DNA of 64,000 nt from an uncultured Acidobacteriota bacterium (lineage in GTDB: Bacteria > Acidobacteriota > Thermoanaerobaculia > Gp7-AA8). Positions 4,273 through 49,587 of the stretch are shown here, piece by piece. A model generated the notes under the pieces. It saw only the letters and a list, made by a program, of their open reading frames with translations. It had not been told where the DNA came from and ran no database searches. Location of the stretch: positions 992,001 through 1,056,000 of the forward strand of contig CAWGHO010000002.1 of assembly GCA_963822445.1 (NCBI GenBank), read 5' to 3'. Both the position numbers and the translations under genes were made by a program. Within the stretch, counting starts at the first letter, position 1. Every line of letters starts with the position of its first letter.

Positions 4273-4989
4273 CTAGTGAGCCACAGCAGCGCCGGACGCC
4301 TGGCCCAGGTACCGGTACCCGATCTTGGCCACGGCCACGATCACCGCGGCATCCGTCCCCACCGCCTTCTGAAGCTTGCGGCGCAGGCGGGTCACGTGCG
4401 TGTCCACCGTCCGGCTGTTCAGATTCAGATCGACGCGGTAGTTCCAGACTCGCGAGAGCAGCTCGTCGCGCGGCACGACCCGTTCCTTGTTCTTGAACAG
4501 GTACATGAGCAGATCGAACTCTTTCGGGGAGAGCTTCAGCTTCTGGTTGTTCGCCGAAGCCTCGCGCGTCGCCGGATCGAGGCGGATCAGCTCGTCCTCA
4601 CAGACCGTCTTCGCGGTCGACGTCACGGCCTCGCTGCGGCGCATCACCGCGTCGATGCGGGCGAACAGCTCCTGCACGCCGAACGGCTTCGTCACGTAGT
4701 CGTCCGCGCCGCCGCGGAGGCCGCGCACCTTGTCCGTCTCCTGGCCGCGGGCGGTCAGCAGGATCACCGGCACTTTCGACATCTTGCGGATGTGGTCGAG
4801 GACTTCGAAGCCGCTCTTCTTCGGCAGCATCAGGTCCAGCAGCACGAGATCGGGCGATTCGGCGTGGAACAGCCGGATGGCCTCCTCACCGTCGCCGGCG
4901 GTCACGGTTTCGTAGTTCTCGTGGCGGAGGTTGATCTCCAGCCCCTGCCTGAGGCCTGCCTCATCCTCCACGATCAGGATCTTCGTCAT
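4273..4989 (-). CDS. OmpR/PhoB-family response regulator
   Basis: REC (IVEDE, LLDLMLP, LTARG, DDYVTKPF) plus winged-helix domain (SRTVDTHVTRLRRKL, GYRY). Confidence 0.95.
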   Translation of the reverse strand: MTKILIVEDEAGLRQGLEINLRHENYETVTAGDGEEAIRLFHAESPDLVLLDLMLPKKSGFEVLDHIRKMSKVPVILLTARGQETDKVRGLRGGADDYVTKPFGVQELFARIDAVMRRSEAVTSTAKTVCEDELIRLDPATREASANNQKLKLSPKEFDLLMYLFKNKERVVPRDELLSRVWNYRVDLNLNSRTVDTHVTRLRRKLQKAVGTDAAVIVAVAKIGYRYLGQASGAAVAH

Positions 4990-5037
4990 GTCATCGTCTC
5001 CGTTCGCATGTTACGGACGCTTGTTCGCAATAGTTTC

Positions 5038-6591
5038 TCAAAACGCAGCCTCGCGAGCCCGCGGCATAGCCACAACCTCCTCGGGCGCACTGAGCGCAAC
5101 CGGGAACATCAGGCGGAACGTCGAGCCCTTCCCCGCCTCCGACTCCACCGCGACCTGGCCGCCGTGGGCCTCGACGATCTGGCGCACCAGTGTGAGGCCG
5201 AGGCCGGCTCCGCGGCGGCTGATCGTGTCGGAGAACTTCGCGCGGAAGTACGGCTCGAAGATGTGTGACGCGTCCGAGCCCTCGATGCCGATGCCGCGAT
5301 CGCGGACCTCGATGATCACGTGCTCCGGCGTCTGGCGCAGGATCACGTCGATCGTCTTCGCGTCGTCCTTGTCCGGAGCCGAGTACTTGATGGCGTTGTC
5401 GATCAGGTTCAGCAGCGCACGCGAGACCGAATCGCGATCCCACATCTGCGCGCCGACCGTGTCGTCGATCTCCACGTTCACGGTGAAGCCTTTGCTCTGG
5501 ATCCAGGAGTCGTACGTCGTGACGAGCGTGCGAATCAGGTCACGCGGCTGCACGGTGGTGAAGGCCAGCGCCTTCTCCTGTTTGTTCTGGATGCGTGCGA
5601 CATCGAGCACGTTCTCGACGAGATGCGAGAGCAGGAGCACCTCGCGGAGGATCTGATCCTCGATCTGCACGCGCTCGTGGTCCTTCAGCTTGCGCTTCAG
5701 CGTTTCCGCGCCGAGGCGGATCATCGAGAGCGGCGTGCGGAGCTCGTGGGAAACGTTCGCGATCAGTGCGCCGCGCAGTTTCGCGGTCTCGGATTCCTTC
5801 TGCAGCCCGCGGAGCGCGAGGAGGGCGCCAACGCCGGTGAGGCAAAGGGCGAGGAAGCTGAGCCAGAGGCTGAGCAGGCGGTAGTTGCTCCAGCCCGTGC
5901 CGCCGACGTAGGCCGTGCGGACTTCCGCGCGGATTCCGAACTCCTCGAGCGGCTTCTCCAGTGGTGCGACGTAGACCAGGCCTTCCGGCACTTTGTGCAG
6001 TCCGTGTTGACGCGGTTTCTGCACGAGCGTCACGTCGCCGCGCTGCTTCGGGCCGGTGCGCATGAGGGGCTGCTGCCGCACGGTGGTGTGCACGGCGGCG
6101 AGAAGCCGGTTCGCGTCGTAGCGGTACTTGACCGATCCCGCCGCGGTGAAGAACTCGCCGGTCAGACTCACTTTCGGCGACGGGCGGTTCGCGAGCGACT
6201 CCGTGACGACGACCGAGCTGGCCGGATCATCGTCCGGCACATACACCGCGGCGACGATCCAGTCGTGAAGAAGGATCCATTCGCGCAGGAGGGAGAAGCT
6301 CGGCGCGCCGACGCGGCGCTCCATCTGCTGATATTCATCGGATGCGCGGGCCATCTCGGCGCGCGCTGCAGCGTCGACGCGGCGGGCGGTGATGTCGGCG
6401 GCATACGTCGCGTACTGCTCGGCGAGCGTCGTTGCCGTCTCCTCCATCTTCACGGAGAGGTAGTAGGAGCGCCAAGCCAGTGCGCCGAGGCCGAGGGAAA
6501 TGATGAGGAAGGGAAGGAGAATCGAGACGCGGTCGGGTCGGCCTCCACCGCGGGAGGCTCGTCTCAACTTCGCAAGAAGCTCGCGCACCAT
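5038..6591 (-). CDS. Membrane sensor histidine kinase
   Basis: Two TM helices, H-box VSHELRTPL, N-box NLIDNAIKYS, G-boxes DRGIGI and GAGLGL. Confidence 0.95.
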   Translation of the reverse strand: MVRELLAKLRRASRGGGRPDRVSILLPFLIISLGLGALAWRSYYLSVKMEETATTLAEQYATYAADITARRVDAAARAEMARASDEYQQMERRVGAPSFSLLREWILLHDWIVAAVYVPDDDPASSVVVTESLANRPSPKVSLTGEFFTAAGSVKYRYDANRLLAAVHTTVRQQPLMRTGPKQRGDVTLVQKPRQHGLHKVPEGLVYVAPLEKPLEEFGIRAEVRTAYVGGTGWSNYRLLSLWLSFLALCLTGVGALLALRGLQKESETAKLRGALIANVSHELRTPLSMIRLGAETLKRKLKDHERVQIEDQILREVLLLSHLVENVLDVARIQNKQEKALAFTTVQPRDLIRTLVTTYDSWIQSKGFTVNVEIDDTVGAQMWDRDSVSRALLNLIDNAIKYSAPDKDDAKTIDVILRQTPEHVIIEVRDRGIGIEGSDASHIFEPYFRAKFSDTISRRGAGLGLTLVRQIVEAHGGQVAVESEAGKGSTFRLMFPVALSAPEEVVAMPRAREAAF

Positions 6592-6608
6592 CGGATTTCA
6601 GCCATCGA

Positions 6609-7070
6609 TCAGTTCGAGCCTGCCGGATGCACGTGCGTCGCGAGATGGCCGGCGATGATCTTGTCCATCTGCTGCTTCGAGTACGGCTCGAGCCGGATGT
6701 CGAGCTTGCGGTAGCCGCCCTGGCGCCAGATGATCAGGCCGACCCGGCCCGTGTTGCGCGCATCGGCCACGAGCTGCTTGAAGTCGCGCGTGCTCGCGTG
6801 CGTCAGCGACTTGCCGTTGATGGCGATCAGACGGTCGCCGACGCGAAGGCCGGCCCGCTCGGCAGGGCTCTTCTCGGTGATCGACTTGACCACCAGGCCG
6901 GGCTTCTTTTCTTCGATCTGGGCACCGTGGTAGCGCCTGCCGCCGAGCATGTTGCGGATCTGCTGATCGCATTCACGAACGGCAACGTTGCACTTCAGAT
7001 CGTCGGCGTACACCGACGTGACGGCGGCGATGAGCCCCGCGATGGCGAGTCTGGAGAGGCGATGAACCAT
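6609..7070 (-). CDS. Secreted PDZ-domain protein
   Basis: Signal peptide from MVHRLSR; SPAERAGLRVGDRLIAING PDZ signature. Confidence 0.85.
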   Translation of the reverse strand: MVHRLSRLAIAGLIAAVTSVYADDLKCNVAVRECDQQIRNMLGGRRYHGAQIEEKKPGLVVKSITEKSPAERAGLRVGDRLIAINGKSLTHASTRDFKQLVADARNTGRVGLIIWRQGGYRKLDIRLEPYSKQQMDKIIAGHLATHVHPAGSN

Positions 7071-7192
7071 TGGCTGAAATCGTGTTCCTTGACCGCTCGA
7101 CACTCTACGGCGGTTCCTCCGGAACGCCATTTACAAATCAGAAAAAGTCAGCTGAATTCCAATGAGTTACGAGGAAATTGACACGATCGCGC

Positions 7193-9046
7193 TCAGTGCG
7201 CAACAGCCCGCCTCCTGCCGGTCGGCGGGGGTGGTGGCGGTGGCGGCGGGGTGGTGTCGGGTCCGTAGACACGCAGACGGTAGCGGTCGGCAATGACCAC
7301 CTTCTCCCCGGCGACCGACATCTGCATCGGCGAGGTGACGGCCATGCCGGTCTCGACGAAGGCCGCCCCGTCCGGCACAGCGAGGGTGTGCAGGAGGCCT
7401 TCGCGAGCCGCGAACACGGTCGTGTCGTTCGTGGCCAGCATCTCCAGCCCGCTGAGCGGCACGAACCCGACGTGGCGCGGCACGAAGCGGTCTTCGGCGA
7501 CGCTGTAGATCGCCACGCCCTGCTTCGACCGCAGCACCACGTGGTGCGCGAGCGGCGCGTTGGGCGGCAGCGTCTCGAGCTGAAAGTACTGGCCCTGGTG
7601 CACCGTGCGATCGACGACCTTCGTGCGATCGGTGATGTCGATGGTGAGGAAGGTGGCCTGCTGGATCGTGTAGATCACGTCATCGCCGGCGGCGACGTCG
7701 AGATAGTGGAAGATGCGGCCGGCGATCTGAACGGGATTCTGCGGATCGCTGTAGTCGACGACATGCAGCCCGCTGTGCTGATTGGCCTCGACGAATGTGT
7801 CTCTGGCCAGGGCCGCGAAGCTCGGGGCGTGCCCCTGCGTGTGCCACTTGCCGATGATCTTCGGCGCGCGAGGGCTGGAGACGTCGATGAGCACGACCCA
7901 GGTGCGGCCGTAGTTGATGGCCAGTCCGTTCTTGACGCGGATGTAGTCCTGAATGTCCGGCACGACGATCGAGGCCATCTCCCGCGGCTCGGTGGTGGTG
8001 GAGATGTCGAGCACGCGCAGGTACGGCGCGTCGATGACGTAGGCAATCGAGCCGTCGGTCCAGACGCCGCTGATCGGACCGGCCAGATCGCGATATTCGC
8101 CGAGGTGCATGGCCGCCGCGGGATTGGTGGTGTCGAAGACGCGCAGCGGCGCGCCAGTCTCGAAGGTGAAGCCTTCGTCATCGACCGTCGCCCCGGCGAG
8201 GAAGACCAGCGATCCGCTCGCCGCGAGAACGTTGATCCACTCCGTCACCGAGCCGATCAGCCGCGGCTCGGAAGGCTTCGAGCCGTCGAAGATGTGCAGG
8301 GTGTCGGGCGCTTCGATCGCGTAGACCCGTGAGCCGGAGGCCGCGACGCGCGACAGGCGCAGCTCGCCGCTGCCCGTCAACCCCACCGTGCTCCGCGTAG
8401 CCACATCAATCGCAAACAATCCTCGGATATCCGCAGCAGCCCAGAGCGTCGAGCCGGAAAGCGCGAGGTCGACCGCGCTGACCGGGATCGTGTTCAACGT
8501 CTCGCCGCTGTTCACGTCGATCGCATGAATGCCCATCTGCTCGATCGCCGCGAACGCCACACTGCCGCTCAACTCCAACGCGCGAACGTTGCCGCTGAAT
8601 GAAATCTGCTGACTGATGACCAGGCCGTCCGCCGTCCGTTCGAGGACCAGCAACGTGCGATCGGTGACGGCGGCGACGCGGCTGCTGGAGGCGGCGATGT
8701 GCGTCACGCGTCCGGACACGTCGGTCGTCGCGAGACGGGACAGCGTGCCGTCGGCGTTGATGGCGAAGCGATCGATGCCTTTCGACGTCGCCACGACGAG
8801 ATCGCGATCGCCGGCCAGCGCCAGATCGACGGCCTCGCCGTCGCCATTCTCAACGTCGATTCTCTGGATCGCCGCGGGATTCGTTACGTCGTAAACCGAA
8901 ACGCCGCGGCCATCGGCGGCGTAGAGCAGGTTGCCGCGCAGCACGAACTGTTTGCTGATGCCGCGCTCACCCCAGATGCCCTGGGGCTGGGCGGCGGCGA
9001 GGCTCGAGAGAAGAGAGAAAAGAAAGAGGACGAGGAGTTTTCGCAA
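7193..9046 (-). CDS. Secreted LVIVD-repeat / beta-propeller protein with poly-Pro linker and RRRAVAH tail
   Basis: TTG start before signal peptide LRKLLVLFLFSLLSSLAAA-Q; repeats such as GVSVYDVTNP, LRVFDTTNP, LRVLDIS, GLHVVDYSDP. Confidence 0.82.
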   Translation of the reverse strand: MRKLLVLFLFSLLSSLAAAQPQGIWGERGISKQFVLRGNLLYAADGRGVSVYDVTNPAAIQRIDVENGDGEAVDLALAGDRDLVVATSKGIDRFAINADGTLSRLATTDVSGRVTHIAASSSRVAAVTDRTLLVLERTADGLVISQQISFSGNVRALELSGSVAFAAIEQMGIHAIDVNSGETLNTIPVSAVDLALSGSTLWAAADIRGLFAIDVATRSTVGLTGSGELRLSRVAASGSRVYAIEAPDTLHIFDGSKPSEPRLIGSVTEWINVLAASGSLVFLAGATVDDEGFTFETGAPLRVFDTTNPAAAMHLGEYRDLAGPISGVWTDGSIAYVIDAPYLRVLDISTTTEPREMASIVVPDIQDYIRVKNGLAINYGRTWVVLIDVSSPRAPKIIGKWHTQGHAPSFAALARDTFVEANQHSGLHVVDYSDPQNPVQIAGRIFHYLDVAAGDDVIYTIQQATFLTIDITDRTKVVDRTVHQGQYFQLETLPPNAPLAHHVVLRSKQGVAIYSVAEDRFVPRHVGFVPLSGLEMLATNDTTVFAAREGLLHTLAVPDGAAFVETGMAVTSPMQMSVAGEKVVIADRYRLRVYGPDTTPPPPPPPPPTGRRRAVAH

Positions 9047-9068
9047 GCGGCCGTGGTCGCTGCAAACT

Positions 9069-9701
9069 TCAAACCTTAAAGCTGAGGACTCCGAAGGCCG
9101 CGGCGACATGAAAATCGGCCGGGTCCTTCCTCGTCGGCTGCCATGCGCTGTACTCATCACCCTCCTCGGGATGACGATCGATGCGGAACAGATTCGCGCG
9201 CCACGTCTCTCCATCGACGGGCGTCGTCCGCCCCAGACCGGCGAACGGAATGCGGATCACGGTTTCGACGGACATTTCATTGCCGTCCTGGCAGATCCGC
9301 ACCGCGGTCCACATGCCCTCGCATGTCCAGCTCCGATCGGCGCGCAGGCCCTCCCGCACGCCCCGCGGCGACTCGATGAGCGCGTCGAACATCGTCCCGC
9401 GCGGGTTCACCTCGAGCTCGAAGTAGCGGATGGGGTCGTCCATGCCGAGGAAGACTTCGAAGACGTCTTCTTCATAGAGGGAGGCGTCGTGCTCGAAGAG
9501 CGTGGCCTCGATGCGATCGTCAGTCGCGGAGAAGAGAACGGTGAGGTACTCGCTGTCGAACCAGACCGCGGCGTTCGTGGCCAACCGCGGTTCCACCCCG
9601 TCCGTCGCGCGCCACAGCCGGACCGGCGTGCAGCCGGCGGGCGCGGTCCACGGCTGCTCGATGTCGAACGGTGCGCGCGGAACGGCGAGGGTGTCGGTCA
9701 T
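9069..9701 (-). CDS. Carbohydrate-binding family 9-like protein
   Basis: LYEEDVFEVF, YFELEVNPRG, WRANLFRID, AWQPT..DFH motifs. Confidence 0.85.
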   Translation of the reverse strand: MTDTLAVPRAPFDIEQPWTAPAGCTPVRLWRATDGVEPRLATNAAVWFDSEYLTVLFSATDDRIEATLFEHDASLYEEDVFEVFLGMDDPIRYFELEVNPRGTMFDALIESPRGVREGLRADRSWTCEGMWTAVRICQDGNEMSVETVIRIPFAGLGRTTPVDGETWRANLFRIDRHPEEGDEYSAWQPTRKDPADFHVAAAFGVLSFKV

Positions 9702-12453: not shown

Positions 12454-12495
12454 AAGGGCCGCGAGACTCGCCAAACGAGACTTGCGGCCCTTTTT
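12454..12495 (+). terminator. Intrinsic terminator of ssrA
   Basis: AAGGGCCGCGAG...CTTGCGGCCC stem followed by TTTTT. Confidence 0.8.
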
Positions 12496-12535
12496 GCATC
12501 AGGCCGCATCGACCACCCTCGAAGGAGACCCCGGA

Positions 12536-14491
12536 ATGCGATTTCGCGTCATCGCTGCTGCCGCATGCATCGTCGCGGTAGCGGTCGCTGCATCCGCCAC
12601 GGAGGCGGAGCTCCGCGCGGTCGCGGAGGCGAACGGTCTCGTGCGCGTGATCATCAAGATCCGGCTCGACGAGCCCTTCGTGCCCGAGGGGCATCTTCGC
12701 CAGGAAGAGCGGGACCGGCAGCGCGACAACATTCGAGGCGTTCAGGACCTCGTCAAGGGCCGATCCCTTCTTGCCCGTCCCAACGAGGTGAAGCGATTTG
12801 CGACCATTCCTTTCCTGACGGCGTCGGCGGACGTCGAGGATCTTCTGAGACTCGCCTCCGATCCGGACGTGGAGTACGTGGCCGAGGATGGTTACGGGAC
12901 GACCGGGCTGACGCACACGCCGGGGATCGTTCAGGCAACCGGGAGCTGGGCTGCCGGCTTTTCGGGTACCGGCCAGATCATCGCCGTGCTCGATACCGGA
13001 ATCCAGGCCAGCCACCCGTTCCTGACGAACAAGGTTGTTTACGAAGCCTGCTTCTCGGAGACCAACGAGCCGCTGTCGATCAGCAGTCTTTGTCCGAACG
13101 GCGGGCCCGTGGCCCGCGGAACCGGGACGGGCGCTGCCTGCCCGGAGGCGGTGGCCGGATGTCATCACGGCACCCACGTGGCCGGCATCGCCGCCGGCAA
13201 AGGGAGCACGTTTTCGGGAATCGCGCGCGATGCCTCGATCATGGCCATTCAGATTTTCCATCGCCGCGATGCGCCGGCCGATTGCAGTCCCGGACCGGCG
13301 CCGTGTGCGCGTTACAGCTTCTCCGATCTCGCCGCCGCCCTCGACGACCTGGCGGTCTTGTACGACACCTATCCCGTCGCCGCGGTGAACATGAGCCTGC
13401 AGGATGGCAACCGCTGGTTCTCGCGAGCCGCCTGCGACGCCTTCCCGGCCTACGGCGCGATCAAGGAAGCGGTCGGCAATCTCGTGTCGCTGAAGGTTGC
13501 CGTCGTCGGCATCACCGGCAACTACCAGTGGGCGGACTCGATTACCGGGCCGGGCTGCCTCTCCGACATCGTGAGCGTCGGCGCCACGACGAAGGCCAGC
13601 GCCGTCCCGACGTTCTCGAATAGCTCGGGGTTTCTCGATCTGCTGGCGCCCGGTGACGGCTTCGCATCCAACTCCGGGGTGTTCTCCTCCGTCCCGTCGG
13701 ACGACTTCGACGCGCTCTGGGGCACCTCGATGGCGGCCCCGCACGTCGCCGGAGCCTTCGCGATTCTGCGGCAGCGCTCACCACTGGCTACCGTCGGCAA
13801 GTTGAAGTCGGACCTGGTGATGACCGGCCAGCCGGTGCTCGACTCGAAGAACGGAGTCACGAAACCGCTGATTCGAATCCTCGACGCCCTGGCCCGCGCG
13901 GACACGACCCCGCCGTCCACGCCGGCCGGCTTTCAGGCCACGGCCTCCGGCATCTCAGCGGAGCTGCAGTGGAACGCGTCGACGGACGACTACGGCATCC
14001 AGCACTACCGCGTGCAGCAGCGTCTCAGCCTGGCCGAAGCCTGGTCCGATCTGCAGACCACAACCTCGACGTCGAAGATGGTTGGTGGAATCACGCCGAA
14101 TGTGACATACCAGTACCGCGTGATCGCGGTCGATACATCCGGGAACGAATCCGCGCCGTCGCCGGCGGAGATCGCGACGTCGTTCTCGTTCACCGATCCC
14201 GTCCTGACCGTCGGCTCGTCACAGATGCGCGCCGTTCACCTGCTGGAGCTGCGGTCCGCGATCGACGCGGTCCGGCAAAGCGCCACCCTGTCCACCGGTC
14301 AGTGGAGCGGCGCGGTGCAAAGCGGTGCCATCGTTCGGGCAAGCGATGTGAGCGAGCTGCGCACGAAATTGTCCGAGGCGCTGAATCAGATCGGCGTGGC
14401 GTTTCCTGCGTTCACCGACGCCGTTCTGACCGCCGGTGCATCGCTGATCCGCGCCGTACACGTCAGTGAATTGCGAGCGAGGACGAACTGA
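12536..14491 (+). CDS. Secreted S8 subtilisin-like serine protease with FN3 domain and triple RAxHxxELR C-terminal repeat
   Basis: AAGGAG RBS, signal peptide, triad LDTG / HGTHVAG / GTSMAAPHVAG; FN3 segment DTTPPSTP..W...Y.YRV.A.D..GN.S. Confidence 0.93.
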   Translation: MRFRVIAAAACIVAVAVAASATEAELRAVAEANGLVRVIIKIRLDEPFVPEGHLRQEERDRQRDNIRGVQDLVKGRSLLARPNEVKRFATIPFLTASADVEDLLRLASDPDVEYVAEDGYGTTGLTHTPGIVQATGSWAAGFSGTGQIIAVLDTGIQASHPFLTNKVVYEACFSETNEPLSISSLCPNGGPVARGTGTGAACPEAVAGCHHGTHVAGIAAGKGSTFSGIARDASIMAIQIFHRRDAPADCSPGPAPCARYSFSDLAAALDDLAVLYDTYPVAAVNMSLQDGNRWFSRAACDAFPAYGAIKEAVGNLVSLKVAVVGITGNYQWADSITGPGCLSDIVSVGATTKASAVPTFSNSSGFLDLLAPGDGFASNSGVFSSVPSDDFDALWGTSMAAPHVAGAFAILRQRSPLATVGKLKSDLVMTGQPVLDSKNGVTKPLIRILDALARADTTPPSTPAGFQATASGISAELQWNASTDDYGIQHYRVQQRLSLAEAWSDLQTTTSTSKMVGGITPNVTYQYRVIAVDTSGNESAPSPAEIATSFSFTDPVLTVGSSQMRAVHLLELRSAIDAVRQSATLSTGQWSGAVQSGAIVRASDVSELRTKLSEALNQIGVAFPAFTDAVLTAGASLIRAVHVSELRARTN

Positions 14492-15069
14492 TGCGATTCC
14501 TGTTCGTTCTGGCCATCGTCGCGACATCGCTCGTTACTCCGATCTGCTTCGCCCAGGACATCTCCATCTCGAAAATCGGCGTTGAAGACTGCGGGGGAAC
14601 CGGCGGCGACGGTCCTGAGAGCACACCGTGCGGCTCGGGACTGATCATCTACAACGTGACGGTCACGAATAACGGGCCCCTGGCGGCGACGAACGTCACC
14701 ATTGAGGACGCTCTTCCGGGGTCGGTGCTGTTCGGCTCCGTGATTTCGCAGTTCCAGTGGTCGTGCACGGCACCGCCGCACCGCGGCACGGGGACCGTCA
14801 CGTGCAACCGCGCGACGCTGCTGCCCGGCGAATCGCGGCTGATCGCCTACACCGTGCTGCTTCCGCTGGGCTACCCGCAGCACGTGCCGCTGGTCAACAC
14901 GGCCACGGTTTCCGCGACGACGCCCGATCCGAATCCGGCCAACAACAGTTCCACCTCCACCCTTGCCGTGCATCTGCTCGCGCACACACCGACGCTCAGT
15001 GAAGCAGCCATCCTCGCTCTCGCTTTGGCGCTCGGAGTGGGTGGGTATCTCGTCCTGCAGCGTCGCTGA
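14491..15069 (+). CDS. DUF11 (conserved repeat) domain protein with IPTL-CTERM-like sorting signal
   Basis: YNVTVTNNGP..ATNVTIED.LP and NTATV...TPDPNPANN; C-terminus TPTLSE + TM helix + RR. Confidence 0.85.
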   Translation: MRFLFVLAIVATSLVTPICFAQDISISKIGVEDCGGTGGDGPESTPCGSGLIIYNVTVTNNGPLAATNVTIEDALPGSVLFGSVISQFQWSCTAPPHRGTGTVTCNRATLLPGESRLIAYTVLLPLGYPQHVPLVNTATVSATTPDPNPANNSSTSTLAVHLLAHTPTLSEAAILALALALGVGGYLVLQRR

Positions 15070-35360: not shown

Positions 35361-36925
35361 ACAGCTCACCGAACAACTTCCAAGAATACGACGCCGCCGG
35401 GCGACTAAGCCGTGTTCGTCAGGTGCTCGGAAGCGGCGAGGTCGTGACGGCATATGCGTATGACAGCCTCGGCAACCTCGTTTCCGTTACCGACCCGAAC
35501 AATAACGTCACGCTCTATCTGTACGATGACTTCGGTCAGATGCTCAGGCAGACCAGTCCGGTGACCGGCGTGACGAACTATCAGTACGACGCCACCGGAA
35601 ATCTCGTGGCCGTGACCGACGCAAACGAGGCCACAACGGCGCGGTCCTATGACGCGAGCAATCGAATGATCGCCGCTGTGTCCTCGCGATCGGGTGCGGC
35701 GACGGAGACCGTCACGTGGACGTACGGCGATGTTGCGGCCGCTCCGTTCGCGAAGAACCGGATGACGTCAATGACCGATCCGACAGGGTCGACGAGCTAC
35801 ACCTACGATCGACGCGGCCTGCTGGCTAGAGAAGCGAAGACAATCGGCCAGGCGACGTACACGACATCCTTCACTCATGACGCGAGTGGCAACCGCGCGA
35901 CGATCACCTATCCGTCGGGCCGGCTGGCCACCTACACGCATGATCACGCCGGCCGTCCCGTCTCATTGACGTCTGCCGGCGCAACGATCATTTCCTCGGC
36001 GAGCTATCTCCCCTTCGGACCAGCGACACGGCTCGTTCTGGGCAACGGAACCATCCAGACGTTTACCCGGGATACACGGTATCTGCCGCTCCGGAACACT
36101 CTCAGTGGGTCCACGGCTCTTGCTGACTACGATTACGGCCGCGACGACGCCGGAAACGTGACGCGCATCGACGACCTCCTCGACCCCGGATATGACCGCA
36201 CCTTCGCGTACGACGGGCTCAACCGTCTCGTGTCTGCGAACGGCGGAGCGAGCTTGTGGGGTGCGGGCTCATACTCCTACGACGGAATGGGGAATCAGCT
36301 CTCCCTCACACTCGGCACGACGCGCGCAGCGACCTTCACCATGGTCGGAACGACTCCGAAGATCGCCGCGGCAACTGAGAACGGCACGGAACGGCCGGTT
36401 GGCTACGATGCAGCCGGAAATGAGACGACCGTAGGAGCGACGACCTACGCTCATTCGGCACGGAACCATTTACTGGCAGACGGGACAAGAACCTACGCGT
36501 ACGACGGCCGCGGGATCCGCACCATCACATCGACCCCAAGCCAGCATCGCTACTCGCTCTACACTCCTGAACTGAACCTGCTCGCCGAAACGGAGACCAC
36601 GAGCAGCGCCACCCCCTCAGTCGCCTGGGAGTACCTCTGGTTCGCGGGTCAGCCGGCCGCGCAGATCGACAACACCACGGGCGCCATCTCCTGGTACTTC
36701 GTCGACCATCTGGGTACGCCAATCCTGCAAACGAACGGCGCGGGCCAGATCACCTGGCGTGCGGAGTACGAGCCCTACGGCTCAATCTTCGCCTACCGCG
36801 CCGGCAGCGCGACGCACCAGCCGCTTCGGTTTCCGGGGCAGGAGACGGAGGCGGGCGTTGACGACAGCTACAACATCTTCAGGTGGTACCGCTCCGGCTT
36901 CGGAAGGTACACGTCTCCGGACCCC
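35361..36925 (+). repeat. Direct repeat copy 2 of the Rhs core 3' half
   Basis: Offset 2854 nt from copy 1 at its start; homology ends around GRY..DP. Confidence 0.92.
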
Positions 36926-37426
36926 GTGACTCTCGGCATGTTGAGCGGTGGCACACCGCCGGGCGAGTACGGCATCTCGTTTTTCGGTCAACGGAGCCTG
37001 CGGAATTTCCGCATGCGCAACTCGCAGTGGGATCACGCCTACGGCTACGTTGCCGGCAATCCGTTGCGAGCTGTTGACCCGAAAGGTCTGTTCGGACCGG
37101 GTGACCTGGCTGGCGCCGGCGGCATCGTCTGCATGCTCGACTCACCGGTACCGGGGCCTGCTGACATCATCGGCGGAGCGATCATTCTGATCGCCGGAGC
37201 GTGGGCGCTCAGCGAGGGAATCGAGTGGGCCCGTGAGCGAGATCGGACGTGCCGCGAATGCGACGACACGCGCGAGAAGTGCAAGAAGCGATGTGACCGG
37301 ATTTATCAGGCCCTCGTGGATGACTGCTCACGTCGTTTCGCTAGTAACCCGAGAGGAGCAGCACTCTGCTATGCCGAAGCCGCTGAGGTCTACGCCGATT
37401 GCTTAAGAGACTGCGAGGGTCGCTGA
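35423..37426 (+). CDS. Orphan Rhs module with a different, Cys-rich C-terminal tip
   Basis: No signal peptide; in-frame TAA at 35354; GTG where the main gene has an internal ATG; DPKGL junction then a new 112-aa tip. Confidence 0.85.
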   Translation: MLGSGEVVTAYAYDSLGNLVSVTDPNNNVTLYLYDDFGQMLRQTSPVTGVTNYQYDATGNLVAVTDANEATTARSYDASNRMIAAVSSRSGAATETVTWTYGDVAAAPFAKNRMTSMTDPTGSTSYTYDRRGLLAREAKTIGQATYTTSFTHDASGNRATITYPSGRLATYTHDHAGRPVSLTSAGATIISSASYLPFGPATRLVLGNGTIQTFTRDTRYLPLRNTLSGSTALADYDYGRDDAGNVTRIDDLLDPGYDRTFAYDGLNRLVSANGGASLWGAGSYSYDGMGNQLSLTLGTTRAATFTMVGTTPKIAAATENGTERPVGYDAAGNETTVGATTYAHSARNHLLADGTRTYAYDGRGIRTITSTPSQHRYSLYTPELNLLAETETTSSATPSVAWEYLWFAGQPAAQIDNTTGAISWYFVDHLGTPILQTNGAGQITWRAEYEPYGSIFAYRAGSATHQPLRFPGQETEAGVDDSYNIFRWYRSGFGRYTSPDPVTLGMLSGGTPPGEYGISFFGQRSLRNFRMRNSQWDHAYGYVAGNPLRAVDPKGLFGPGDLAGAGGIVCMLDSPVPGPADIIGGAIILIAGAWALSEGIEWARERDRTCRECDDTREKCKKRCDRIYQALVDDCSRRFASNPRGAALCYAEAAEVYADCLRDCEGR

Positions 37427-38069: not shown

Positions 38070-39101
38070 TCACTTCCGCGTCGACCGCCGCCGCCCCCCG
38101 GCACAACTGAACGCTTCGGCGTGCTCGGCATCCTGAATCGCGTACGACTGCGCCTGGTTTCGCGTGAATGACGTCGTCGCGTAGGACGAGACGATCAGAG
38201 CGCGATTGCGTTGCGGGTCGTACGGCTCGAGCAGCGTCGTGACGTCGCCGCCGAGGTTCGCGTGCACGTCGAGCATCCTCGCTTCGGCGGCACAGTCGAG
38301 CGGCAGCGCGTCCATGCGCAACGTCTTGCGCTGGCGATTGCGGTCGCTGACCCAGGAAATCTCCTTGCGCTTTGCGTCATAGACCACGCTCCAGCGCGTC
38401 GATCCCGGTTGGGCCACGCTCGACAGGATCTCGAATGCACGGTCCACCGACGCCGAGCCTGAACGAAGCATCGTCGCGGCGCGCGCGAAGCGGTCGAGTG
38501 AGCTGAACGTCGACGCCTTCGGACGCGAATTCAGATAGGACACCGAACGGGCGTAGCTGTCGTTGGTCAGGACCGCCGCGGGCAGCGACGCGCCGCGATG
38601 AACGACCAGGTTTCCGCCGAGGTATTCGATCGTCGCCGCGTCACCGGTGGCGTCGGCGATCAGGTAGTGAAGAGGCGTGCCGCCGGCGATGCGGGTGCGC
38701 TCGACGTGGGCGAGCATCTCCTCGACCGAGCCGTAGTTGTCGAGGCCGTACTGAATCCACTCCAGCACGCGCAGCGACGGGCGCTCGTCACGCGGGTAGA
38801 CCGTCTCATCGAGCCACATCAACGCGATCACCAGGCCGACCTCGTTCATCCCGTCCATCGGGAACTCGCGTCCCCACTGGTTGAACGTGACGCTGGCATA
38901 GCGCGTCGTCCAGCGCAGCGTCCCGGCCATCGAGGTCTTCGCGACTCCGCGGGCGTTGGTCATGACGTAGCCCTGGCCGATCTCGAAGTCGTAGTTGCGG
39001 CCGAACAACGCCTCGCCGTCGCCGGCCATGCAGAACGTGGTGCAGGGAAACGCAAGCGGCGCCGTGGAGAGGACGAGAGCGAGCAGCAACGCGCGATGCA
39101 C
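38070..39101 (-). CDS. Secreted linear amide C-N hydrolase (choloylglycine hydrolase / penicillin V acylase family) with RRRSTRK tail
   Basis: Signal peptide then CTTF nucleophile, GRNYDF, DGMNE.GL, LHYLIAD..G, LTN, S..RF. Confidence 0.9.
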   Translation of the reverse strand: MHRALLLALVLSTAPLAFPCTTFCMAGDGEALFGRNYDFEIGQGYVMTNARGVAKTSMAGTLRWTTRYASVTFNQWGREFPMDGMNEVGLVIALMWLDETVYPRDERPSLRVLEWIQYGLDNYGSVEEMLAHVERTRIAGGTPLHYLIADATGDAATIEYLGGNLVVHRGASLPAAVLTNDSYARSVSYLNSRPKASTFSSLDRFARAATMLRSGSASVDRAFEILSSVAQPGSTRWSVVYDAKRKEISWVSDRNRQRKTLRMDALPLDCAAEARMLDVHANLGGDVTTLLEPYDPQRNRALIVSSYATTSFTRNQAQSYAIQDAEHAEAFSCAGGRRRSTRK

Positions 39102-39211
39102 CCGCTCACTATGCAGCGGCGTCGGGCGGGCGCGGCCGGCGTTCACGCGAAGTTTGCCGCCGTGTCCCTCTTTTTTTCCGTTTTGCGCTTTCGGAGACAA
39201 GGAGGAAGTTC

Positions 39212-44225: not shown

Positions 44226-45089
44226 ATGCTTTCAATAACCAACCTCTCCAAGACCTACGCCAATGGCGTGCGCGCCCTCCACGATGTGACGCTGGAGATC
44301 GGCAACGGCCTCTTCGGCCTTCTCGGTCCGAACGGCGCCGGTAAATCGACGCTCATGCGGACGATCGCCACGCTTCAGGAACCGGACCAGGGGGCGATCA
44401 CTTTCGCCGGCCGCAACGTCGTGGCCGACCCCCGCTTCCTCCGCCGCCAGCTCGGCTATCTGCCGCAGGACTTCGGCGTGTATCCGAAGATTCCGGCGTT
44501 CGATCTCCTCGACCATCTGGCCGTTCTGAAGGGATTGGGCAGCCGCGCGCAACGGGTGTCGCAGGTCGAGTCGCTGCTGCATCTCACGAATCTCTACGAC
44601 GTTCGCAGGCGCGCGGTGAGCTCATTCTCCGGCGGCATGAAGCAGCGCTTCGGCATCGCCCAGGCCCTCCTCGGCGACCCGAGGCTGATCATCGTCGACG
44701 AGCCGACGGCCGGGCTCGATCCCGAAGAGCGCAATCGCTTTCACGATCTGCTCAGCGAGATCGGCGAGAACGTCGTGGTCATCCTGTCGACGCACATCGT
44801 CGATGACGTGAGCGATCTCTGCTCGCGCATGGCCGTGCTCGCGGGCGGGCGGGTGTTGCTGCAGGGCAGGCCGGCAGAGCTGATCGAGAAGCTCGAAGGG
44901 CGGGTGTGGCGGAAGACGATCCGCAAGGACGACATCCCGCGGTATCGCGAGTCGCACACCGTGTTATCGACTCGCCTGTTCGGTGGCGAGACGCGGATTC
45001 ACCTGCTCGCCGACGAACGTCCCGAAGAGGGATTCGAGGTCGTGCCGGCTGACCTCGAAGACGTGTATTTCTCCGTCCTCCGCGCATGA
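44226..45089 (+). CDS. ABC transporter ATP-binding protein
   Basis: GPNGAGKST, FSGGMKQR, VDEPTAGLD, LSTH, LEDVYF. Confidence 0.95.
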   Translation: MLSITNLSKTYANGVRALHDVTLEIGNGLFGLLGPNGAGKSTLMRTIATLQEPDQGAITFAGRNVVADPRFLRRQLGYLPQDFGVYPKIPAFDLLDHLAVLKGLGSRAQRVSQVESLLHLTNLYDVRRRAVSSFSGGMKQRFGIAQALLGDPRLIIVDEPTAGLDPEERNRFHDLLSEIGENVVVILSTHIVDDVSDLCSRMAVLAGGRVLLQGRPAELIEKLEGRVWRKTIRKDDIPRYRESHTVLSTRLFGGETRIHLLADERPEEGFEVVPADLEDVYFSVLRA

Positions 45090-48000
45090 TCAAAGACGTC
45101 GTCGCATTCGAATGGCGCTATCACACGCGCCAGGCGTCGTTCCTCGCCGCGGCGCTGATCTTCTTCCTCTTCGGCTTCGCGCTGACGGCGCGCGCATTCG
45201 GTCCGGCGAACGTGAACATCGACTCGCCGTACAGCATCACCCAGACCGTCGCGCTGCTCTCGCTGTTCTCGGTCTTCGTGCTCGCCGTCTTCTGCGCGAA
45301 TGCGGTCGTGCGCGATCGGGAGACGAGGATGGAGGAGATCGTCTTCACGACGTCGATCGAGAAACTGCCGTTTCTCTTCGGCCGTTTCACGGGATCGTTT
45401 CTCGCGGCGTTCACGGCGTTCAGCATGTCGGTGGTGGGGATGTTCGTCGCCCGCTTCATGCCCTGGCACGACGCGGACCGGCTCGGCGCGTTGAATCCGC
45501 TGCCTTATCTCTGGGCGCTGCTGGTGGTCGCGCTGCCGAATCTTTTCTTCGCGGCGGTGGTGCTGTTCGGGCTCTCGACGGTGACACGCAGCGTGCTGGC
45601 GAGCTACGCCGGATCGGTGCTGCTCTACGTTCTGTACTTCGTCGCCGCTGCCGCGACGGACTCGCCGTTGCTCGCTGCGTCAGCCCCATCAGCGAGTGAA
45701 GGGATGTCGCTGGCGGCGCTGCTCGATCCGTTTGGACTGTCGGCGTTTTTCGAGCAGACGAAGCATTGGACGCCGGCCGTTCGGAATTCGCGGCTGCTTT
45801 TGTTGAGTGGGTCGTTTCTGCTGAATCGCGTCATCTGGCTGGGGGCGTCGGTTGCGGGGCTGGCAGTGGTTTACCGGCTGTTTTCGTTTCGTGTGGTGCG
45901 GGCCTCTGGCCTACCTCTCAAGCCCCCACCGCCCAAAGGTAGGCCGGAGGCCCACACTACACCGTCGCGGCCGTTCCTCGCCCTCACCAGAATCGAGATC
46001 CGCACGCTCATCCTCAACCGCGCGTTTCTGGCGATGACGCTGTTGTGGGCGGGGCTCGCGGCATTCGAGCTGATCTCGGAAGTCACGCGCGGCGAGTACG
46101 GCTCGGCGACGTATCCGACGCCCGGCATTCTCTTCAGGACGCTCGCCCAGCCGCTGTCGATGCTGGTCACGATCCTCATCGTCTACACGAGCGCGGAGAT
46201 CGTCTGGCGCGAGCGCGCACTGCGCATGGCGGGCATTCTCAACGCGTCGCCGGTGAGCAACGGCGTGTTCGTCGCCGCGAAATGCACCGCGCTCGCGGTG
46301 ATGGTGTTGTTGATGACCGCCGTCGCGGTGATCACCGGCGCGATCCTGCAGCTCGGCCGCGGCTGGCCGATCGAGCCGGGCGCGCTGCTGGCCTTCGTCT
46401 ACTTCAGCGCGATGCCGCTGATCCTGCTGGCCATCGCCGCGGTCGTCATTCAGACGCTGAGCCCGCACAAGTATCTGGGCATGCTGCTGGTGCTGCTGTT
46501 CGCGGTGGTCAGTCAGCGCGGCGAGGTCCTGGGGCTGAACAACCCGCTGTGGCGCTTCGCGAATGCGCCGGGCGTCGAGTACTCGGACATGAACGGCTTC
46601 GGCCGCACCGCGCCGTTCCACTGGTTCATGCTGTACTGGGCTGCCTTCGCCGGCCTGGGTCTGCTCCTGGCGATCGCGCGCTGGCGCGGCACGCAGGTGC
46701 GCGTGCATCGGCCCGTCGCGATCACACTGGCCTTGATCTTCGTTGCCACCGGCGCATTCATTTACGCGAACACGAACACGCACGACATGCTCGCCTGGCG
46801 CGCGGAGTACGAGAAAAAGTACAAGCCGTTCCAGTCCCTTCCCCGGCCTCGCATCAGCGCGATCAAGGCGACGGTCGACCTGTATCCCTCGGCGCGCCGC
46901 TATCGCGTTCGCGGCGAGTACGTTCTGCTCAACGAGACCGCGAAGCCCGTCGACAAAGTGCTCGTGGCCCTGCGGCGCGGCGAGGATCCGACGACACTCG
47001 CGCTCGACCCGCCGCTCGCGCCGCGCGGACGCCGAACCGTGCGGTTCGACGTCACGCACGAGAATCGCGATTTCGTTGCGCCGGATCAGACCATCGTCGA
47101 AAACGGCTCGTACATCACCAGCATCCGCGCGCTGCCGGCGATCGGCTATCGCGCCGGATGGGAGATCGACGATCCCCGCGAGCGCCGCCGCCGCGGCCTG
47201 CCGCCCTCGACGCCGCGTCCCGAGTCAGAGATCCCGATCGCGGAATGGGTCGACGTCGACCTGACCGTGTCGACCGAGACGGATCAAACCGTCGTCGCAC
47301 CTGGAACGCTCGTGCGCGATTGGAAAGAAGCGACGCGCCGCTTCTTTCACTACCGCACCGCAGCGCCGATCCCGAATCAATTCGCAATCTCCTCGGCCCG
47401 CTACACGCTCTCGAAGCAGACCCACGACGGCGTGGCCATCGAGCTGTATCACCACCCGCGGCACACGCCGAACATCGAGCGGATGACGCGCGCGGCGGCA
47501 GATTCACTGCGTTACTACCGCGACAACTTCGGACCGTACGCGCATCCGCATCTGCGCATCGCGGAAGTTCCGATTCCGATGTTCTCCGCATTCGCGCAGC
47601 CAGGCGTGCTGTTCTTCGGCGAGAACCGCGGCTTTCTCATCGACGCGCGCGATGAGCGCCGCATCGATCTGGTTTACCGCCGCGTCGCGCATGAGATCGC
47701 CCATCAGTGGTTCGGCTACACGCTCATTCCGGCCGACGTGCCCGGTGCGTCGACGCTCGCCGAGTCGCTCACGAAGTACGCGGAGCTGATGGTGCTGAAG
47801 AAGGCCCACGGCCGCGAGCAGGTCGGCCAGTCGCTGGCGTATGAGCTCGACCTTTATCTTTCCGGCCGAACGACAGTCACCGGCGCGGAGCCTCCGGTGG
47901 TGAAAGCGGAGAGCGACCAGCCGTTCCTCTTCTACCGCAAAGGCGCGATCGTGCTGTACGCGATCGAGGAGCTTCTCGGCGAACAGACCATGAACGCCGC

Positions 48001-48412: not shown

Positions 48413-48432
48413 TCTTGCATGGAGCCGGGCTC

Positions 48433-49587
48433 ATGATCCGGTTCCTGCCCCTCGTCGTCACAGTCGCGCTCAGCCTCTCCCTCGCAGCCCAGAACGTCGT
48501 CCTGCAACCGGTGGTCGGCAATCTCACCGCGCCGGTAGCGATCGCCCACGCCGGTGACGACCGGCTGCTCATCGTCCTGCAGGCGGGGCAAATCGTGATC
48601 TGGAACGGGACCAGCCTGCTGCCCACGCCGTTCCTCGACATCCGCCCGCTCGTCCTCGCCGGCGGCGAGCGCGGCCTCCTCGGCCTGGCCTTCCATCCCG
48701 ATTACGCGCAGAACGGCTTCTTCTATGTGAACTACACCAACCGGGCGGGAAACGGAGACACGGTCATCGCCCGCTACACGGTGTCGGCTGCCGACCCGAA
48801 TCGCGCCGACCCCGCCTCCGCGCGCACCCTCCTCACCATCGACCAGCCCTTCTCCAATCACAACGGCGGACAACTGCAATTCGGCCGGGATGGCTACCTC
48901 TACATCGGTATGGGCGACGGCGGCTCGGGCGGCGATCCGCAGAACAATGCGCAGAATCGTGCGCAACTGTTGGGCAAGATGTTGCGCATCGACGTCGACA
49001 GCGGCAATCCCTACGGCATCCCGCCGACCAACCCGTTCGTCGGGCAGTCCGGTGTGCGGCCGGAGATCTGGGCCACCGGGATGCGCAACCCCTGGCGGTT
49101 CTCATTCGACCGCATCACCTCCGACCTCTGGATCGCCGACGTCGGTCAGGGGGACGTCGAGGAGATCGATTTCCAGCCGGCTTCGAGCCGCGGCGGGGAG
49201 AACTACGGCTGGCGGATCAAGGAAGGCTCGGAGTGCTTCAACAGCAACAACTGCAACAGCGCGGGGCTGGTCGATCCCGTGGTCGAGTATGGCCACACGA
49301 ACGGCGCCTGCTCCGTGACCGGCGGCTACGTCTATCGCGGCACGCGCACGCCGCGCCTGACCGGGACGTACATCTACGGCGACTACTGCAACGGCGTGAT
49401 CTGGGGAGCAACGCGAAACGCGAGCGGCGCGGTCACGACGCGGGTCCTCATCGACACCAACCTGTTCATCAGCACGTTCGGCGAGGATGCGAACGGCGAG
49501 GTGTACGTCGCCGATCACAACGGCGCCATTTATCGCATCACCGATTCGATCCCGCTGCCGCCGCGACGCCGTTCCGTGCGCAAGTAA
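48433..49587 (+). CDS. Secreted PQQ-dependent glucose/sorbosone dehydrogenase-family protein with RRRSVRK tail
   Basis: Signal peptide, GERGLLGLAFHP, NHNGG.L.FG.DG.LY..MGDGG, GKMLRID, GMRNPWR, NYGW. Confidence 0.92.
   Translation: MIRFLPLVVTVALSLSLAAQNVVLQPVVGNLTAPVAIAHAGDDRLLIVLQAGQIVIWNGTSLLPTPFLDIRPLVLAGGERGLLGLAFHPDYAQNGFFYVNYTNRAGNGDTVIARYTVSAADPNRADPASARTLLTIDQPFSNHNGGQLQFGRDGYLYIGMGDGGSGGDPQNNAQNRAQLLGKMLRIDVDSGNPYGIPPTNPFVGQSGVRPEIWATGMRNPWRFSFDRITSDLWIADVGQGDVEEIDFQPASSRGGENYGWRIKEGSECFNSNNCNSAGLVDPVVEYGHTNGACSVTGGYVYRGTRTPRLTGTYIYGDYCNGVIWGATRNASGAVTTRVLIDTNLFISTFGEDANGEVYVADHNGAIYRITDSIPLPPRRRSVRK

Follow-up and report, generated by a model that had tools for sequence, protein, structure and literature searches.

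The window analysed here is a stretch of 64,000 nucleotides from an uncultured soil bacterium (Acidobacteriota) of the class Thermoanaerobaculia (GenBank assembly GCA_963822445.1, contig CAWGHO010000002.1, positions 992,001 to 1,056,000 of the forward strand), in which three secreted proteins of different families, namely an LVIVD-repeat beta-propeller protein, an Ntn hydrolase and a PQQ-type glucose/sorbosone dehydrogenase (GSDH), end in closely similar arginine-rich tails. The three genes, their tails and the linker of copy 1 are as follows, with families as assigned by Pfam.

7193..9046, minus strand: secreted LVIVD-repeat beta-propeller protein with tail 1
7217..7255, minus strand: Pro-rich linker TTPPPPPPPPPTG, joining tail 1 to the LVIVD propeller
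7196..7216, minus strand: tail copy 1, RRRAVAH (AGG AGG CGG GCT GTT GCG CAC; stop TGA at 7193-7195)
38070..39101, minus strand: secreted Ntn hydrolase (CBAH / C45 family) with tail 2
38073..38093, minus strand: tail copy 2, RRRSTRK (stop TGA at 38070-38072)
48415..49587, plus strand: secreted PQQ-type GSDH with tail 3
49564..49584, plus strand: tail copy 3, RRRSVRK (stop TAA at 49585-49587)

Translation of the open reading frames (ORFs) bears out the original prediction, made from the letters of the window, that the three proteins end RRRAVAH, RRRSTRK and RRRSVRK; the codons of the tails match those given there exactly, the stops are TGA, TGA and TAA, Pfam agrees with the three families named, and only these three among the 46 called window genes have such an end. 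The ORF of the copy-1 gene extends over 7193-9214 (minus strand) and that of the copy-2 gene over 38070-39200 (minus strand); the consensus of homologues places the real start of the copy-1 protein probably a little downstream of 9046. The N-termini of all three proteins are ordinary Sec-type signal peptides. The linker ahead of tail 1 differs in sequence and length among homologues and keeps its Pro-richness, and a two-residue GG spacer separates tail 2 from the last conserved Cys of its domain.

To place the three copies in their genome we used the whole assembly (6.0 Mb, 64.5% G+C, three contigs), in which 4,356 genes were called with a home-made codon-usage model that gives approximate start sites. 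The strict pattern RRR[AS][VIT]R[HKRSQ]?-stop stands at the end of 20 of these genes. The same motif occurs internally only 7 times in 1,657,970 residues, which gives an expectation of 0.04 C-terminal occurrences and thus a C-terminal enrichment of about 500-fold. Arg-rich ends could in principle arise by chance or artefact, from the high G+C content of the genome or from miscalled frames, and DNA-level pattern searches are indeed full of spurious Arg-rich matches in non-coding frames. However, the strict tail is found on 20 real genes and on none of 10,334 shadow (non-coding-frame) ORFs, despite 18.6% Arg in the latter; the codons vary among the copies; the tail is associated with signal peptides; and hundreds of homologues, down to 44% identity, retain it. 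We conclude that a chance origin, whose probability we regard as negligible, is excluded. Because the codons differ between copies and homologues keep the tail, the claim that conservation is at the protein level, and not that of a DNA repeat, also stands.

A relaxed pattern, [RK]-R-R-[AS]-[VAIT]-R-[HK]?-stop, in which K is also allowed as the first residue along with several conservative substitutions, is matched by 36 called genes, dispersed across all three contigs; one of them, at C2:905724-907574, encodes a multi-pass TPR membrane protein, is the only tail-like gene with a helix, is probably unrelated and was excluded. The length of exactly seven residues holds for the window copies but not genome-wide: 19 of the 36 genes have a 6-residue tail, whose last residue is the R of position 6, and the other 17 have a tail of 7 residues. 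An internal copy, ..NPG-RRRSVRH-DFNNDG.., at residue 826 of a 2,399-residue secreted protein of this genome (G000, C3:1849988-1857187, minus strand) lies at a domain boundary and may be a gene-fusion fossil or a processing site.

The tail proved to be enriched on signal-peptide proteins, the check proposed in the original prediction: 26 of the 36 tail proteins pass a strict signal-peptide rule, vs. 891 of the 4,320 others (odds ratio 10, Fisher p=5e-11). The 10 tail proteins that fail this rule mostly have a visible signal peptide, and two of them are subtilase fragments; with a laxer rule, 25 of 29 tail proteins pass, vs. a background of 40%. There is no convincing lipobox among the tail proteins. 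Pfam searches of the 36 tail or near-tail proteins assign the carriers to more than 20 families, with 7 of the 36 being S8 subtilases and 9 having no Pfam match. The further carriers include a PL8 polysaccharide lyase, a copper amine oxidase, two FG-GAP, two Kelch and two BNR/sortilin proteins, a second GSDH (with a dockerin), DMFA2_C, DUF4185 and DUF3500 proteins, a C70 peptidase, a PhoX-like protein and a haem-peroxidase-like propeller, and in many carriers PKD, Calx-beta, fn3 or TIG modules directly precede the tail. We conclude that about 36-40 Sec-exported proteins per genome carry the tail, that most of them are exoenzymes and beta-propeller or Ig-domain proteins, and that the carrier set is a typical extracellular and surface protein population.

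Conservation of the tail was assessed in two homologue sets: the best 120 GSDH matches, comprising the query itself and 119 homologues with 64-93% identity, and the best 120 LVIVD homologues, with identity down to 44%. Nearly all of these 119 GSDH and 120 LVIVD homologues terminate in the tail while the preceding linker varies, and the named GSDH homologues are from Thermoanaerobaculia or Acidobacteriota metagenome-assembled genomes. A residue table counted from the C-terminus, without a motif filter, has R or K at position -7 in 118/119 GSDH and 116/120 LVIVD homologues, R at position -6 in 105/119 and 109/120, R at position -5 in 115/119 and 114/120, A or S at position -4 in 109/119 and 94/120, V, A, I or T at position -3 in 114/119 and 102/120, and R at position -2 in 112/119 and 81/120. 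At the last residue, position -1, nearly all homologues have one of H, K, R, P and Q (the few exceptions being S, F, A, N and G), and H is the most common (119 of 239). Lys is common at position -7 (91/239) and at position -1 (43/239), and occurs in 0/239 at position -5, 9/239 at position -6 and 4/239 at position -2. When tails were located by a motif anchor among the 240 homologues examined, 217 of the 232 tails found had a length of 7; this anchor forces R at position 3, and the unfiltered residue table is the more reliable. As judged from these sequences, the tail is under purifying selection, and the combination of a residue-specific pattern and a fixed length argues for a specific reader. 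The consensus put forward originally, R-R-R-[AS]-[VT]-x-[HK], thus described a real tail but is better written P-[RK]-R-R-[AS]-[VAIT]-R-[HKRQP], of which copy 1, RRRAVAH, is a slightly off-consensus member.

The residue table bears directly on the main rival explanation, which we consider possible, though rather unlikely: that the tail is an electrostatic surface anchor, which would bind lipopolysaccharide (LPS) phosphates, acidic or sulfated exopolysaccharide, or anionic lipids non-covalently and without dedicated machinery. The tail, which a flexible linker carries, is positively charged (net +4 to +5), and P-[RK]-R-R-[AS]-V-R-[HK] fits, residue for residue and as a pattern only, the Cardin-Weintraub consensus for glycosaminoglycan binding, XBBBXXBX. 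A preference for Arg could by itself reflect phosphate or sulfate binding. However, an electrostatic anchor should tolerate Lys, which in the tail is accepted at positions -7 and -1 but excluded at positions -5, -6 and -2; nor would such an anchor account for the limitation of position -4 to A or S and of position -3 to V, A, I or T, or for the near-constant length of the homologue tails; and its location in the protein should vary, yet the whole proteome has only the 7 internal copies. For human GBP1, excerpts of two reports describe a C-terminal polybasic motif that is needed for detecting bacteria, and direct LPS binding (PMC7240152, PMC7327485), a precedent that favours electrostatic anchoring; both the Cardin-Weintraub and the GBP1 motifs, however, tolerate Lys and a variable position, whereas the tail is position-specific and of fixed length.

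The Ntn-hydrolase family shows that the tail comes and goes independently of the domain that carries it. The strict tail pattern is present in 57 of 120 homologues of this family. Five homologues with 67-69% identity (P0419, P0427, P0432, P0443 and P0447) are tail-less and end 1-6 residues past the last conserved Cys, and homologues at 50-56% identity have degenerate tails of the form RRxR-A-[VL]-R-[PHR]. Below about 49% identity, most homologues have a Ser/Thr linker and a hydrophobic helix without a basic cluster, and others end soon after the conserved Cys. The plain hydrophobic helix of these distant homologues looks like an anchor rather than a processed signal, a point on the side of electrostatic anchoring. 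Many of the homologues P0482-P0510, one of which is named as Pyrinomonadaceae, have a hydrophobic helix that reaches the C-terminus, unlike that of classical tripartite signals. The comparison of homologues indicates that the tail is a module gained and lost independently of the domain.

The tail is also structurally separate from the domain. An AlphaFold2 model of the GSDH (mean predicted local distance difference test score, pLDDT, 91.2) has its last strand ending at residue 371, and residues 372-384, which include tail 3, are coil, with pLDDT block means of 82 and then 65; the position of the tail in coil past the last strand of the predicted propeller marks it as an appendage, outside the fold. 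The residues ahead of the tails are Pro-, Gly- or polar-rich and form no transmembrane helix. We conclude, in agreement with what had been claimed for the window copies, that the tail is unstructured, is without a hydrophobic helix and is not a folded domain.

Outside the family of Thermoanaerobaculia to which this genome belongs, the tail gives way to other ends. In four other genera of the same family, the GSDH orthologues (60-63% identity) have the ends PRRRAARR, PRRRAVKK, KRRRGVR and, in a degenerate form, PARRRLTRRGAD. GSDH orthologues from three other families of the class (55-59% identity) have no tail: one is fused into a larger protein, one (from the unpublished genome G004) ends ...RPRPTARVIERN, and one ends ...FADGFESGDATAWS, followed by a different basic stretch. 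Of these orthologues, that of family f7 has a 'FADGFE' tag where the family of this genome has the Arg tail. Among the 150 best 50%-identity GSDH cluster representatives, none has the tail, and a domain scan of the 91 shortest of the 150 finds 14 with the Por_Secre_tail module of type IX secretion (T9SS), 2 with a dockerin and 1 with a LysM domain. Together with the ends of the distant Ntn homologues, these results confirm the expectation that orthologues outside the lineage lack the tail. The presence of T9SS domains, a hydrophobic helix and the FADGFE tag at the same position amounts to the tag exchange that is characteristic of sorting and anchoring signals.

Genome searches agree with this range. 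Under a uniform rule, in which strict 7-residue DNA-pattern matches were checked for real gene ends, the matches that proved real were 7 of 10 in this genome, while four other genera of the family gave 7 of 12, 2 of 5, 1 of 6 and 1 of 5. Families f9, f12, f13 and f15, represented by five genomes, have 15 matches; a single one is accepted under the rule, with the sequence RSRSVRK, so that no canonical tail is among the 15. Orthologues of the DMFA2_C and DUF4185 tail proteins were not found in five genomes of other families, and the LVIVD protein has only distant paralogues in genomes of other families, so that these proteins say nothing about tag exchange. A DNA-pattern census of 150 genomes of the class and 300 of the phylum was set aside as too noisy, with a match-to-control ratio of about 1.5 per summed family (rough hand sums) and with only the own genus standing out; this census and the peptidase C25 tallies given below include the unpublished genomes G135, G104, G004 and G291, on which, apart from the G004 orthologue, none of the conclusions depends. 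We conclude that, among the genomes searched, the tag is restricted to a single family of Thermoanaerobaculia. Taken with its conservation, the tail is a genuine lineage-specific C-terminal tag of 6-7 residues, with the consensus P-[RK]-R-R-[AS]-[VA]-R-[HK]-COOH, carried on a flexible and often Pro-rich linker.

No catalogued model of a sorting signal fits the tail. NCBIfam sorting-signal models have no match at E<=1 in the three window proteins, and the sorting-signal models in Pfam have none in the 36 tail proteins, in line with the claim that no described sorting hidden Markov model covers the tail; as a positive control, PF18203 matched another window protein. Among known systems, the tripartite signals (PEP-CTERM/exosortase, IPTL-CTERM, MYXO-CTERM/myxosortase, GlyGly-CTERM/rhombosortase and LPXTG/sortase) resemble the tail in standing at the extreme C-terminus of signal-peptide proteins of many unrelated families, in occurring dozens of times per genome, in being lineage-specific, in having a basic cluster at the end, and in being replaced by other tags on homologues elsewhere. 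Excerpts of the literature on these signals describe their tripartite architecture (PMC11980579, PMC6219818). They differ from the tail in having a signature motif and a transmembrane helix, of which the tail has neither, only the basic end; without a hydrophobic helix the tail cannot hold a protein in the inner membrane for an intramembrane enzyme. Derivation from IPTL-CTERM was considered and rejected, as the basic ends of the approximately 13 IPTL-CTERM proteins of this genome are unlike the tail.

The T9SS C-terminal domain (CTD; Por_Secre_tail, PF18962), which spans about 70-100 residues and is cut and exchanged for a lipid-linked glycan by PorU, is like the tail in being a helix-less C-terminal label of exoenzymes, and it stands at the same place on the 14 GSDH homologues mentioned above. 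It is, however, a folded domain, whereas the tail consists of seven unstructured residues, and neither PF18962 (searched in the 36 tail proteins) nor TIGR04183 (NCBIfam, searched in the three window proteins) gives a match. The abstract of PMC12860637 deals with T9SS CTD and LPS anchoring and not with the Arg tail. Closer in taxonomy is the FADGFE tag, a 'FADGFE...W' sequence of about 20 residues, which occurs in the same class of bacteria on the same kind of carrier and is helix-less like the tail but acidic and aromatic where the tail is polybasic, the two sequences being unrelated; this genome has one weak match only, and the families with one tag appear to differ from those with the other.

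Three further signals were considered and rejected as accounts of the tail. Attachment to peptidoglycan of the Lpp type goes through a C-terminal Lys, and the last residue is K in only 5 of the 36 tail genes and 43 of the 239 homologues. The outer-membrane protein (OMP) C-terminal signal is an aromatic last residue on the last beta-barrel strand, and the last residue of the tail is basic or polar, on carriers that are soluble enzymes and propellers. A Tat signal does not fit a C-terminal motif with nothing after it on proteins with N-termini of the Sec type. In operation, by analogy, the closest systems would be others. Peroxisomal targeting signal 1 (PTS1, -SKL), the KDEL/HDEL signal and the OMP C-terminal signal, the last of these read by BAM and by the PDZ domain of DegS, are addresses of few residues whose distance to the free carboxylate is fixed and which a soluble receptor domain reads, as the length and position-specific pattern of the tail suggest for the tail; they differ in sequence, compartment and organisms, so that the likeness is one of operation only and not of membership. 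The operation proposed below would thus be nearer to PTS1, KDEL or the OMP C-terminal signal than to the sortase-type tripartite signals. The full-text literature, queried also with the literal tail strings, yielded in the excerpts returned no description of such a tail, and the string matches were unrelated. The tail would accordingly be a putative C-terminal sorting or anchoring tag without a catalogued model and, if a dedicated reader exists, would represent a categorically new pathway.

We propose, as an evenly balanced judgement, that the tail is read by a protein partner. According to this proposal, Sec exports the protein and signal peptidase I cuts the signal peptide; a protein partner in the envelope would then recognise the tail, a short linear motif whose distance to the free C-terminus is fixed; and this partner, either a receptor or a processing or transpeptidating enzyme specific for Arg, would address the protein to the cell surface or exterior, or retain it there. 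The Arg-only positions, the small residue followed by a beta-branched residue, the preceding Pro and the fixed distance from the carboxylate favour a protein partner. We infer that the reader is a protein, what the destination is and any cleavage of the tail. Of the original proposal, a signal for outer-membrane export, surface attachment or processing, the part that has held is a selected, lineage-specific tag of secreted proteins, and the directing role stays a hypothesis: no machinery was found, and the electrostatic anchor is a serious rival.

Several observations weigh against the proposed reading by a partner. The host organisms are all uncultured. Four to five arginines could bind anionic envelope polymers without an enzyme, so that a specific reader is not required. 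Only 26 of 917 predicted exported soluble proteins bear the tail, which therefore is not a general requirement for export, and tail abundance is uneven between genera of the family. Within 4 genes on either side of the 36 tail genes the recurrent neighbours are only two-component, ABC-ATPase and subtilase-type families. Peptidase C25 (gingipain/PorU-like and Arg-specific) was tried as obligatory machinery and rejected: it was not found in genomes G027, G047, G095 and G143, of which G027, G047 and G143 have GSDH orthologues that keep the tail and G095 one with a degenerate form, and 25 of the family's 35 genomes have it, as do many genomes of other, tail-free families. A reader, protease or transporter was thus found neither in the neighbourhoods nor by C25 profiling, an outcome that also fits electrostatic anchoring without machinery.

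The gene neighbourhood of copy 1 bears on another rival explanation, namely that the tail serves recognition in proteolysis or sensing and is not an address: a site cut after R-R-R, a ligand of PDZ or S41 proteins, or a cytoplasmic C-terminal degron for unexported exoenzymes, for which the basic ClpX 'C-motif 2' of MuA offers a comparison. The features concerned, which include signalling genes elsewhere in this genome (G000), are as follows.

6609..7130, minus strand: small PDZ-domain protein, exported (signal peptide) and with C-x6-C, immediately following the copy-1 gene; context, with no established part
5038-6591, minus strand: histidine kinase, following the PDZ gene
4273-4989, minus strand: response regulator, following the histidine kinase
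C2:1411253-1414015, C2:1501096-1503879, C2:1503914-1506688 and C1:484197-487007 (genome G000): signalling genes with an N-terminal PDZ domain

The order of tailed LVIVD propeller, C-x6-C/PDZ protein, histidine kinase and response regulator (4273-9214, minus strand) is kept in 5 of 5 other genera checked, with a basic tail on the upstream protein in 4 of the 5, and the four genes may form an envelope-sensing module. An [RK]-R-R sequence followed by a small residue resembles a basic-residue protease site; four membrane signalling proteins (a histidine kinase, two SpoIIE/PP2C phosphatases and a Ser/Thr kinase) have an N-terminal, presumably periplasmic, PDZ sensor domain, among approximately 16 PDZ proteins in the genome; and S41 peptidases lie near two tail genes. 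We nevertheless regard recognition for proteolysis or sensing as quite improbable. A PDZ homologue stands beside a kinase in a tail-less genome of another family, which indicates that the PDZ module is older than the tail; S41 neighbours at two of 36 loci are weak evidence; the removal of 3-4 residues has no obvious purpose; and a degron would leave unexplained the secretion and anchor modules that homologues have at the same place. The PDZ protein was likewise rejected as a family-specific marker, since it is present in 5 of 5 family genomes but has a distant homologue, the one next to a kinase, in an f12 genome that lacks the tail. A complex prediction for the PDZ protein and the last 40 residues of the copy-1 protein gave a score of 0.00, that is, 'no answer', and speaks neither for nor against binding. 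The PDZ and S41 observations are leads rather than evidence.

The surroundings of the other two window copies are of different kinds. An RHS-repeat protein (PF05593, PF03527) is encoded at 35423-37426 (plus strand), near the copy-2 gene. Ahead of the copy-3 gene, 44226-48412 (plus strand) encodes an ABC ATPase and then a 1,108-residue fusion of an ABC-2 permease and an M1 aminopeptidase domain, and the fusion gene stops 2 bases ahead of the start of the tailed GSDH ORF (48415); the three genes may constitute one operon.

The genome contains other recurrent C-terminal modules. A common end of about 35 residues, ...G[LI]xxxxFTDPxLTxGxTxxKAxHxxELRxxxx-stop, is shared by the product of the window gene at 12482-14491 (plus strand) and those of about 23 other genes, all large secreted proteins and many of them S8 subtilases, and is found also on the GSDH representatives P0249, P0310 and P0311; Pfam reports nothing beyond S8 and fn3 on the window copy, and the module is a second candidate C-terminal tag or domain here. 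A third recurrent module, ...GRVTAYGSVIDxxTxDPTYVPAQ-stop, ends eight proteins of 559-6,947 residues (e.g. G000 C1:183847-192069 and C3:1305401-1326244), of which 6 exceed 1,300 residues and 7 pass the signal-peptide rule. The gene at 14491-15069 (plus strand) of the window encodes a DUF11 protein with an IPTL-CTERM signal (PF18203), one of the approximately 13 in the genome. With IPTL-CTERM beside the other end modules, at least four types of C-terminal tag coexist in this genome.

A stronger form of the proposed reading, which we regard as possible but doubtful, is that the seven-residue, helix-less Arg tag would be the whole address in an envelope sorting pathway so far undescribed. The tag might be read by a receptor, soluble or in the outer membrane, that feeds a translocon, in which case it would be a bacterial equivalent of PTS1/KDEL-type signals; or the reader might be a transpeptidase specific for Arg, which would cleave after R-R-R and join the protein to a glycan or lipid of the surface, in the manner of sortase or PorU and with a leaving group of 3-4 residues. 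For this step, sister families of Thermoanaerobaculia would rely on another short tag, and the class would possess interchangeable minimal sorting tags.

To our knowledge, the well-described bacterial C-terminal sorting signals are all either tripartite, with a membrane helix, or folded domains. If the tail has the role proposed here, a seven-residue tag on dozens of exoenzymes would mean that a far smaller label can suffice, and would point to new machinery or to simple electrostatic docking in the Acidobacteriota, an abundant and almost uncultured soil phylum. The motif offers a cheap predictor of extracellular and surface enzymes in metagenomes of this group, and the tail is a candidate minimal display or retention tag.

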